Of a stretch of 51,153 bases of DNA, positions 18,001 to 21,000 are shown piece after piece. Position numbers: made by a program. Source of the stretch: a virus (lineage: Duplodnaviria > Heunggongvirae > Uroviricota > Caudoviricetes). Within the stretch, counting starts at the first letter, position 1; the number at the start of each line of letters is the position of its first letter. The stretch is from the IMG/VR virus record IMGVR_UViG_2939521961_000005; one strand, given 5' to 3'.

Positions 18001-21000
18001 GATCCTGCTGGTACCATGCTGTCGTGGTGGTTCGGCATTCACCCAGGGCGCGGAGGGGACATTCAGTGCGGACACGGGGGCCAGCCAGGATTCGGCACGC
18101 TGGGGTGTGGGTAAACCGTTATATCAGGACCTGATTGCGCGCACTAAAGCTGCATTACAGAAGAACCCGAAAAATGTGTTGCTGGCGGTGTGCTGGATGC
18201 AGGGAGAGTTTGACATGAGCGCCGCCACCCACGCACAGCAACCTGCGCTGTTTACAGCCATGCTGACACAGTTTCGTGCTGACCTCTCCGTGTTTAACGC
18301 GCAGTGCCATGGTGGCAGTGCTGCAGATGTGCCGTGGATTTGTGGTGACACGACGTATTACTGGAAAAATACATACGCTACCCAGTACGACACCGTGTAC
18401 GGCGGGTATAAAAACAGGGAGAGTGAGGGCGTTTATTTTGTGCCCTTCATGACAGACGGTAACGGTGTCAATACCGCCACTAACGCGCCGGCAGAAGATC
18501 CGGATATTCCGGCATCAGGATATTACGGTGCGGCATCGAGAACGAATGGAAACCAGGTATCATCAAACCGCCCGACACATTTCAGTTCATGGGCGCGCAG
18601 GAGCATTATTCCGGATCGTCTGGCAACCGCTATTCTGAACGCAGCCGGGCGCACCTCCGCCTTCATCAGTGGTAAGGCACCGGAAATCAAACCCTCGCCC
18701 GGCGGCAACACGCCATCGGGTCCGTCTGCAGATACGTCCGTTCGCACAATCTCCCTGCTGCCGGCAGCCGGAGAGGCTGCTGCGCAGGGCTGGAGCATTA
18801 AGGATGGCGGAATTCAGTTGTCGGGTGGTGTATTTAAGATCGCCAAGCAGAGCAATAAAACCTGGTCCCTGACGCATCCGGTGGATGACGCAATTACCCT
18901 GCTGACACAGGGCGGCAGACTGACCTGTAAGTTCCGCCTGTCAGGCGCACTGACCAACAATCAGTTCGGGCTGGGGATTTATCTGTATACGGATGCTCCC
19001 GTTCCTGATGGTGTGGCGATGACGGGTACCGGTAATCCGTTCCTGATGTCGTACTTCACTCAGACCACTGACGGCAGAGTGAATCTGATGCATCACAGGA
19101 AAGCCGGAAACACGAAGCTGGGGGAGTTCGGCGATTACGGTAACGACTGGCAGACGCTGGAGCTGGTGTTCACCGCCGGCAGTGCCACGGTTACTCCGAA
19201 ACTGAATGGAGTGGCTGGCCCGGCATTCCAGGTTATAAAAGACAGTATGACACTGGGACTGAATGCGCTGACGCTGACGGATGTTACAAAAAATGCAGCG
19301 TATGGCGTTGAGATAGAAAGTCTGGTGCTGGAGATAAATGCACCGGCAGCATAATAAAAAAAGCCAGCGCCCACTCTGAAGGACGCTGGCTAAAACGGGT
19401 AGATGTACTTCACATGATACTTATATTTGGCAGTACATTTTCTGACAGACAGTGACGGATGTTGTCAAGATATTGTGTCATTTATAACCTGAACCAGGGG
19501 GGGCGGAATGTTATCTGGCATTTTTAGCAGAGCCTGAATGCCATAATCACGGCTCCCGGAGTTGGCCGTCAGTGGGTGACACTGGCGGCTTTTTGTTTTC
19601 CTTTACTTTCATTTTCTGTCGGCGGTGACGGAGACATACATCAGATGGAAAAAATCACAACAGGTGTGTCATACACCACGTCAGCGGTAGGGACGGGATA
19701 CTGGTTACTGCAACTGCTGGACAAAGTCTCTCCGTCCCAGTGGGTGGCAATAGGTGTGCTGGGGAGTCTGCTGTTTGGCCTGCTGACGTATCTGACTAAC
19801 CTTTATTTCAAGATTAAAGAAGATAAGCGTAAGGTGGCGCGGGGAGAGTAGTCGATGAATAAACAATACGAACTGGTTGTAAAATGAATATTTCTAACTG
19901 AAAAAACGTTCCATGAGGTGAGAAAAGGTCACAGGCAATCAATAACAGGACGTGATGAAAGACCCTTGCATTTGTGCGCTTTCTCTTTAGATAGCAGCAG
20001 ATACTGAAAATCTGAGTTGTCGGGGAGTCAGGGATACAGCTGTGCAAGAGTTGGTCATTGTGATTCCATTGAAATCCTGTATGCCATGAAGGGCAGGATT
20101 TTATGGCTACCTGAGCTTTGGTGATAGTAAGTTGAAAATTCGCATTTTTTGCTGACATGCGTAACGAGAATCCCATAAGCAGGGAGGACTTAATTCTTCA
20201 TTAACCCATGCGTTGATATTATGTTTCAGCCGTTGAAGCATCAGCGGTGTTAATGTTGTGGTAATAATATCCAGCGTTTTATGTGAGATCTTACCGTAAG
20301 GGTCTGCAAGAATGCTGCTTGTTGCTTCGTTATTATCTGCCATCAGAAGAAGTAACTCTGATTTAACGTTTTCTGTCATTAGTTGTAAAAATCTTCTGCG
20401 CAAACTTTCTTTACTGTTCATTTATATGGCTTCATTTGTTGTAATCTGCTGCGTCTCAAGGGATATGTTTATGAGAGCGACCATGAGTGTTGGATTATAT
20501 ACCTAACATATCAAGGGATTAGAAATCGATAAATCCCCATGAACGAAAAAATAAAATACGGCCTGTCGGCTGCCGTTCTGGCGCTGATTGGTGCAGGTGC
20601 TTCTGCGCCTGAAATCCTCGACCAGTTTCTGGATGAAAAGGAAGGTAACCACACCACGGCATACCGTGATGGTGCGGGGATCTGGACCATCTGCCGTGGT
20701 GCCATTCTGGTGGATGGTAAGCCTGTTATTCCTGGCATGAAGCTGTCAAAGGAAAAATGCGACCGGGTTAATGCCATCGAACGTGACAAGGCGCTGGCAT
20801 GGGTGGAGAAAAACATCAAAGTGCCGCTGACCGAACCCCAGAAAGCGGGGATCGCGTCATTCTGTCCGTATAACATTGGCCCCGGTAAGTGTTTCCCGTC
20901 GACGTTTTATAAACGAATTAATGCAGGTGATCGAAAAGGTGCCTGCGAAGCGATTCGCTGGTGGATTAAGGACGGTGGCAGAGACTGCCGTATCCGCTCA

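Follow-up and report, generated by a model that had tools for sequence, protein, structure and literature searches.

Between the holin and lysozyme genes of the lambdoid prophage in IMG/VR virus record IMGVR_UViG_2939521961_000005 (51,153 nt, hereafter called the window), a stretch of AT-rich DNA carries a small gene which is directed against the surrounding late genes. Sequence comparison shows that this open reading frame (ORF) of 104 codons, located at 20107..20421 on the minus strand, is a real protein-coding gene under purifying selection. It lies beside the remains of a late-strand gene with which its relatives in other prophages form a convergent pair. We consider it moderately probable that the gene is late-region cargo comparable to bor of phage lambda, with a promoter of its own, expression chiefly in the lysogen, Q-dependent shutdown and a protein product that acts on a protein target.

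Results

The antisense open reading frame is a conserved protein-coding gene

A preliminary description of this region, made from the sequence alone, had pointed out the 104-codon ORF as the only substantial one between the two lysis genes. The ORF was found intact at the same coordinates; its status as the only one was not upheld, since a minus-strand ORF of 120 aa (19814-20176) overlaps it. This longer frame falls in a pseudogene remnant described below. Neither the 120-aa ORF nor a plus-strand ORF of 64 aa (20312-20506) has family support in Pfam, PHROG, PADLOC or NCBIfam. The 104-aa protein matches the profile of the PHROG 1853 family with an E-value of 3.5e-47, residues 1-102 being aligned with positions 57-158 of the 159 profile positions, and no match was obtained for it in Pfam (E<=1), NCBIfam or PADLOC.

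In eight homologues with 48-78% identity the frame is open and the pairwise ratio of non-synonymous to synonymous substitution rates (dN/dS) lies between 0.12 and 0.39; homologues down to 21-50% identity also keep the full frame open. The constraint is specific to the annotated frame, with a median dN/dS of 0.18 compared with about 1.2 in four of the five other frames, and the single other low value (0.31) belongs to the antisense frame with shared wobble positions. Within about 50 copies of the same insert in IMG/VR, the ORF is the least variable segment, showing 3.5 variable sites per 100 nt as against 9.8 in the adjoining 255 bp and 14.5 in the upstream spacer, and its variants comprise eight synonymous and three non-synonymous changes. 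Homologues, frame-specific selection and the profile match to PHROG 1853 thus bear out the antisense ORF as genuine and conserved.

The RefSeq version of the gene, annotated by the Prokaryotic Genome Annotation Pipeline (PGAP), starts at an internal methionine and comprises 90 aa (20107-20379; WP_000138558.1). Because this methionine is not conserved in the phage 86 branch of the family and the first 14 residues of the longer version fit the family profile, the 104-codon start is probably the better call and the public annotation would be 14 codons short.

The AlphaFold2 model of the 104-aa protein consists of five helices, with a predicted local distance difference test (pLDDT) score of 87 and a predicted template modelling (pTM) score of 0.78, and the sequence has no long hydrophobic segment. 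The product is therewith predicted to be a small soluble five-helix protein. Across the family, the isoelectric point ranges from 4.6 to 9.3 and the net charge is not conserved. This variability would suit a role in protein binding better than that of a conserved DNA- or RNA-binding regulator, since a conserved nucleic-acid binder is disfavoured by such a range.

The AT-rich spacer includes the wreck of a late-strand partner gene

The spacer between holin and lysozyme (19852-20538) has a length of 687 bp and a G+C content of 0.392, compared with 0.526-0.528 for the whole window and 0.50-0.53 for the two lysis genes. Values as low as this occur in just 0.5% of 687-nt windows (z = -2.5). Windowed G+C content thus agrees with the preliminary description, in which AT-rich DNA was said to part the holin from the endolysin. 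The view that this DNA is an inserted, compositionally foreign segment is likewise supported, both by the low G+C content and by the adjacency of the two genes in other prophages. In locus L020, for example, the holin and lysozyme genes are 4 nt apart. (Here and in the following, numbers such as L003, L010, L013 or L015 are labels of comparison prophage loci, and L128-L174 are contigs from IMG/VR.)

By its sequence, the 255 bp segment between the holin gene and the antisense gene is the wreck of a late-strand gene. It begins with the N-terminal stub of a YdfR/DUF1327-type gene (19855..19887, plus strand), which reads MNKQYELVVK and then stops. Eight of these ten residues are identical to the start of orf5 of phage 86 (MKKKYELVVK), the N-terminus of which belongs to DUF1327 (E 3.7e-45), and both genes start 3 nt past the holin stop codon. 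The stub is followed by a C-terminal remnant with the phrog_1085 domain (19937..20100, plus strand), which is interrupted by in-frame stops, shortened by an internal deletion and has lost its stop codon. It was detected by tblastn with an E-value of 3e-5 and 39% identity over 41 residues with two stops, in addition to a terminal MKGRI. The stub at a distance of 3 nt and the decayed C-terminal match together indicate that the apparent spacer is composed of a dead late-strand gene and a live antisense gene.

The antisense gene and its late-strand partner converge in phage 86 as well as in many other prophages, and the two stop codons are placed between a 19-nt gap and a 33-nt overlap. The N-terminus of the partner is variable; it is DUF1327/YdfR-like in phage 86 and has, judged by eye, the look of a short coiled coil elsewhere. 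The C-terminal phrog_1085 domain is conserved and displays the motifs H.H, IGRCMG.LQ.AAEIE, PPFK and YLKGRI. The pair is kept in Salmonella and in more distant contigs, where the cassette is located upstream of the holin and not between holin and lysozyme.

A scan with the partner family yielded 80 viral contigs, 49 of which carry the partner between the two lysis genes and have no antisense gene. The antisense ORF, for its part, is intact with the partner decayed or absent in at least five independent configurations, namely the window type, a type with a 65-aa stub, a type without partner, two remnant types and a site between Q and the holin beside a porin gene. Evidently, the two genes are not mutually dependent, and the antisense gene has a value of its own. 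We found no description of the convergent pairing with a phrog_1085 gene or of the repeated survival of the antisense gene after loss of the partner.

Two identities were tried for the pair and rejected. A toxin-antitoxin or immunity pair was dismissed because each gene occurs alone, loci with the ORF only being common besides the 49 of 80 partner loci without it. Known anti-phage defence was dismissed as well, since no PADLOC-DB v2 family matches either product at E<=1. Searches of PDB by sequence and by profile were empty for the partner as well as for the ORF. As an observation on the partner itself, the contigs L128-L174 show that a phrog_1085 gene alone, encoding either 184 aa or a fusion with DUF1327 of 268 aa, very commonly occupies the slot between the lysis genes. 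It is also widespread in Salmonella prophages with variable N-terminal extensions, and its product has conserved His and Cys residues and belongs to no known family.

Candidate signals for leftward transcription and translation

Together with the antisense gene, some 70-90 bp of DNA preceding its start codon are carried into contexts in which everything further upstream differs. This segment includes a candidate -10 element, TATAAT, at 20494..20499 on the minus strand, which is exact in nine of the eleven type-A homologues, the clade containing the ORF of the window. Among these nine is the homologue of L015, where the promoter scan calls a full TTAACC-16-TATAAT at the homologous place. The divergent branch with phage 86 and Salmonella has a hairpin and a GAGGA Shine-Dalgarno sequence upstream instead.

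The predicted leader is AT-rich and unstructured (z = 0.29), and a structured 5′ leader was ruled out on this basis. At its end lies an upstream ORF of five codons (MKPYK; 20418..20435, minus strand), the TGA stop of which overlaps the ATG of the gene in the sequence ATGA. An M[KR]xYK peptide with overlapping stop is found in eight of the eleven type-A homologues; it is fused in frame in L013 and L014 and absent in L015. The arrangement suggests translational coupling in place of a Shine-Dalgarno sequence.

A putative intrinsic terminator which would act on leftward transcripts only is located beyond the holin at 19355..19391 (minus strand). Its stem (19362-19391) comprises 11 pairs, eight of them G-C, with a folding energy of -22.7 kcal/mol. 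It is followed in the minus-strand reading by a T7 run at 19355-19361, no T-run being present on the late strand, and is located immediately after the stop codon of the SASA/NanS-p esterase gene. A minus-strand-only terminator had been proposed in the preliminary description, and the hairpin scan recovered it with the T7 run on that strand alone. Most loci of the window type, about 37 other prophages sharing the insert, carry a variant hairpin, AGCCAGCAC..GTGCTGGCT, followed by G and T7, in which a G-C pair of the stem is replaced by A-U through a compensatory change and the T-run is again leftward only.

Between the ORF and 19391-19362 the hairpin scan found no strong leftward terminator, only a weak 5-pair hairpin inside the holin gene, so that some 700 bp separate the stop codon of the ORF from the nearest strong one. 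Antisense read-through across the holin is therefore plausible, and the layout could fit the leftward transcript, antisense to the holin gene, which had been suggested in the preliminary description. The conserved TATAAT, the unstructured leader and the leftward-only terminator would fit an independent leftward transcription unit. Rfam has no relevant family in the region 18500-22500, and we found no prior description of a leftward unit which ends at a terminator on the far side of the holin.

Distribution of the insert and of the gene family

In 622 records of complete E. coli genomes the identity of the insert is at least 99%, and at least 80% of the insert query is covered in 626 of 5,426 such genomes. 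It is common in serogroups of the type carrying the locus of enterocyte effacement (LEE), such as O26, O103, O45 and O157, and in these E. coli records the ORF is always annotated as a hypothetical protein. At the DNA level, neither a near nor a distant match to the insert was found in the phage collection. At the protein level, tblastn identified orf6 of the Shiga toxin 2 (Stx2)-converting phage 86 and a gene present in two Stx2a phages as homologues with 53% identity. The family is tiny: when 1.84 billion representative proteins were searched with its profile, only 21 clusters were obtained at E<=0.001. Those family members for which a source is named belong to Escherichia and Salmonella, and none bears a functional name. 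No mention of WP_000138558 was found in the searchable literature, and a comparative paper on Stx phages does not discuss the slot between holin and lysozyme.

The gene occupies three sites of the late region, namely the slot between the lysis genes, a position upstream of the holin, and a position between Q and the holin beside an lc/nmpC-like porin gene. At all three it is oriented against the late strand. The third site is seen in L015 (4001-5823) and L016 (1608-3430), where the homologue lies about 400 bp upstream of the porin gene. Both genes run against the late direction and a terminator follows the porin gene only, so that homologue and porin gene may form one lysogen-expressed unit.

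The lysis region and the prophage of the window

The holin gene S (19645..19851, plus strand) encodes a class II holin of the P21 type according to Pfam (Phage_holin_2_1, PF04971, E 1.9e-32) and RefSeq annotation. The lysozyme gene R (20539..21072, plus strand) was assigned in the same way (Phage_lysozyme, PF00959, E 3.2e-24). The N-terminus of the lysozyme is hydrophobic (YGLSAAVLALIGAGASA) and, judged by eye, resembles that of a signal-arrest-release (SAR) endolysin. An Rz/Rz1 pair is located downstream of the lysozyme.

The statement of the preliminary description that S and R are normally adjacent is overstated, since the slot is very often filled in E. coli: in most sampled records ydfR/DUF1327 or other genes lie between or beside holin and lysozyme. 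The contents vary among prophages and include ydfR, the partner alone, the partner together with the ORF, and the ORF alone. In L018 (1125-1397, minus strand; NZ_CP051659.1, WP_000369850.1) a different ORF of 90 aa is also placed in antisense direction in this slot and overlaps the 3′ end of an intact ydfR. A similarity to the ORF of the window is not evident by eye, and the L018 ORF has neither a tblastn match to the ORF family nor a match in Pfam. The slot thus seems to collect small antisense genes repeatedly.

The hairpin scan detected a strong terminator-like hairpin on the late strand at 19564..19600, which precedes the holin start by about 55 nt. Equivalent hairpins of different sequence occupy the same place in L003 (5886-5858) and L010 (5256-5227). 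The core of the hairpin in the window (CAGTGG...CACTGGCG) is similar to the hairpin that precedes the antisense gene in the phage 86/Salmonella branch. The late-strand hairpin may insulate the lysis genes against promoters of upstream cargo genes and read-through in the lysogen, or it may mark a recombination boundary.

The window as a whole is collinear with a prophage of E. coli O26:H11 str. 11368, from record position 1,473,273 onward. The gene order starts with integrase, dicB, cI/cro, a Q-region gene, tRNAs, terB and an esterase of the NanS-p type, followed by the lysis genes, an HK97-type head, tail genes, lom and espK. Compared with the O26:H11 prophage, the window has an extra insertion of 1.26 kb at about 22258-23518, which holds the ORF of an IS3-family transposase (22322-22624; HTH_Tnp_1, E 1.5e-20). 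In L036 (1935-2081, minus strand) and about 30 sister loci with the same antisense-gene insert, a late-strand ORF of the PerC family lies about 1.9 kb away, after Rz; this genuine PerC ORF is absent from both the window and O26 11368.

Discussion

We interpret the gap between holin and lysozyme as a cargo ("moron") slot in the late operon of a lambdoid prophage. It would once have held a convergent two-gene cassette, consisting of a late-strand accessory gene, with an N-terminus of the YdfR/DUF1327 type or a coiled coil and a C-terminal phrog_1085 domain, and an opposite-strand gene of about 105 codons. In the lineage of the window, the late-strand gene has decayed to a remnant of 250 bp, with the antisense gene being kept intact by purifying selection. 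We infer that this gene is transcribed leftward from its own promoter and mainly in the lysogen, because Q-driven late transcription would meet it head-on after induction. The selected product would be a protein and not an RNA, and this protein most likely binds another protein, be it a host target or, ancestrally, the product of the partner gene. The transcript probably continues in antisense direction through the remnant and the whole holin gene up to 19391-19362. Such read-through could add to the basal silencing of the holin, as a side effect and not as the selected function.

The antisense gene behaves like a classical moron, in the sense of Hendrix and Juhala, and belongs to an already catalogued, uncharacterised family (PHROG 1853, with orf6 of phage 86). 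It is present or absent between otherwise adjacent genes, as seen from the adjacency of the lysis genes in L020 and the varied contents of the slot, and its base composition is atypical.

Several observations weigh against interpreting the gene as lysogen-expressed cargo with its own promoter. In the window, the promoter scan calls no sigma-70 site upstream of the ORF and the -35 region is poor. The ATG is not preceded by a canonical Shine-Dalgarno sequence, as had been stated in the preliminary description. The link between the ORF and the leftward terminator is circumstantial, because the terminator is inherited together with the esterase-holin spacer of the window prophage type and is absent from loci with an intact pair. 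For expression in the lysogen, the argument is the analogy with bor and lc. Furthermore, fold searches with the AlphaFold2 model gave generic helical matches only, profile searches of PDB sequences with the ORF family gave nothing, and Pfam, NCBIfam, PADLOC and the fold searches offer no clue from family or fold to the activity of the protein.

Of the other explanations, a dedicated regulator or inhibitor of the phrog_1085 partner, acting in the manner of an immunity protein or antitoxin and surviving in the window as an orphan, is in our judgement unlikely. The abutting or overlapping convergent pair is kept across E. coli, Salmonella and distant contigs with saturated synonymous sites, and the partner has repeatedly been lost with the ORF surviving, as is known from orphan antitoxins. 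The 49 partner-bearing contigs without the ORF nevertheless argue that the partner is tolerated alone, purifying selection on the ORF persists where the partner is gone, the ORF also occurs in sites which never show the partner (L015/L016), and neither protein matches a PADLOC model. Rather improbable, too, is a main function in antisense or transcriptional-interference control of the lysis cassette, by which leftward transcription would collide or pair with basal rightward transcripts and so silence the pinholin and, by roadblock, the SAR endolysin until overridden by Q-modified polymerase. Such a function is suggested by the layout, since the gene always faces the late strand and is always beside a lysis gene, the 3′ ends overlap in intact pairs, and the scans detected no strong leftward terminator on the way from the ORF to the far side of the holin, just past which the window prophage type has a conserved leftward-only one. 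Selection on the amino-acid sequence, with its frame-specific dN/dS of 0.18, is not needed by a role in RNA only, though; the gene in L015/L016 points away from the holin toward the porin gene and has no lysis gene downstream; a late-strand terminator is already present just upstream of S; and an untranslated RNA tail would be exposed to Rho termination. We give similarly little credence to the convergent pair as a control module for lysis, in which the leftward unit would check the pinholin and SAR endolysin, or the partner, via its protein, antisense RNA or both, and would be switched off at induction by head-on collision with Q-dependent late transcription.

That the ORF is non-functional debris with a frame left open by chance in recently spread DNA is very improbable. 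An identity of at least 99% in about 620 genomes would by itself reflect recent spread and not selection, and the copy of the window has neither a Shine-Dalgarno sequence nor a called promoter; against this stand the full frame in homologues down to 21-50% identity, the dN/dS values of 0.12-0.39, and the adjoining remnant, whose rate of variation is about three times that of the ORF in copies of the same insert. Hardly credible, finally, is a PerC/Pch-like activator of virulence genes; a PerC/Pch-like regulator had been raised as a possibility in the preliminary description. The insert is common in LEE-type serogroups and in L013/L014 a homologue is found 450 bp downstream of a gene of the PerC family, but in L013 a lysozyme remnant parts the two, which points to prophage debris and not to an operon. 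Neither the protein of the window (E<=1) nor five diverged members of the family (E<=10) match PF06069, although the real PerC ORF of the sister prophage L036, used as a positive control, does so with an E-value of 2.2e-24. BLASTP gave no alignment to the PerC protein of L013 at E<=100, and the variable isoelectric point of the family disfavours a conserved DNA binder.

The cargo interpretation, as well as its alternatives, concerns a gene which is found in about one ninth of complete E. coli genomes, mainly in cattle- and patient-derived strains of serogroups such as O26, O103, O45 and O157, and which is located within the cassette controlling the timing of host lysis. Purifying selection acts on this gene, which moves together with its upstream region as one unit and outlives its ancestral partner. 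If the gene or its read-through transcript affects spontaneous lysis or induction, it would matter for the stability of prophages in these pathogens; if it has no effect on lysis, it would be one more lysogen-expressed cargo gene.

The closest known relative with an intact pair is found in phage 86 (AB255436), where orf6 (BAF34038.1) matches PHROG 1853 at the same positions, is located in the same slot in antisense direction, and has the same length of 104 aa. Unlike in the window, its partner orf5 (BAF34037.1; 268 aa, DUF1327 and phrog_1085) is intact, with the two stop codons 9 nt apart, and the upstream region has the hairpin and GAGGA instead of TATAAT and the small upstream ORF. The usual occupant of the slot is YdfR of the Qin prophage, a DUF1327 protein; the 11-codon stub of the window matches the DUF1327 start of orf5. 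Its gene, in contrast to the antisense gene, belongs to the late strand; YdfR and the 104-aa protein are unrelated, and the window keeps only the dead stub. According to a published report (PMC13232886), YdfR interacts with the catalytic half of RNase E and possibly binds RNA, and this interaction with RNase E is the only finding which we encountered in the literature on DUF1327 and ydfR.

Type II toxin-antitoxin and immunity pairs resemble the ancestral cassette in that two small adjacent genes are kept as a pair and one of them is often an orphan. The genes described here differ from type II toxin-antitoxin systems, since they are convergent and not co-transcribed, each is commonly intact alone, and no defence or toxin-antitoxin model matches.

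The bor gene of phage lambda and the lc/nmpC porin genes of PA-2 and DLP12 are late-region cargo, transcribed against the late direction and expressed in the lysogen. The gene of the window differs from them in being unrelated in sequence (no Pfam match), in encoding a predicted soluble helical protein and not a lipoprotein or porin, and in its position inside the lysis cassette and not after it. Like bor and lc, it is an extra gene of the late region beside the lysis genes, on the opposite strand, of atypical composition and apparently with its own promoter, and one of its homologues immediately precedes an lc-like porin gene that has the same orientation.

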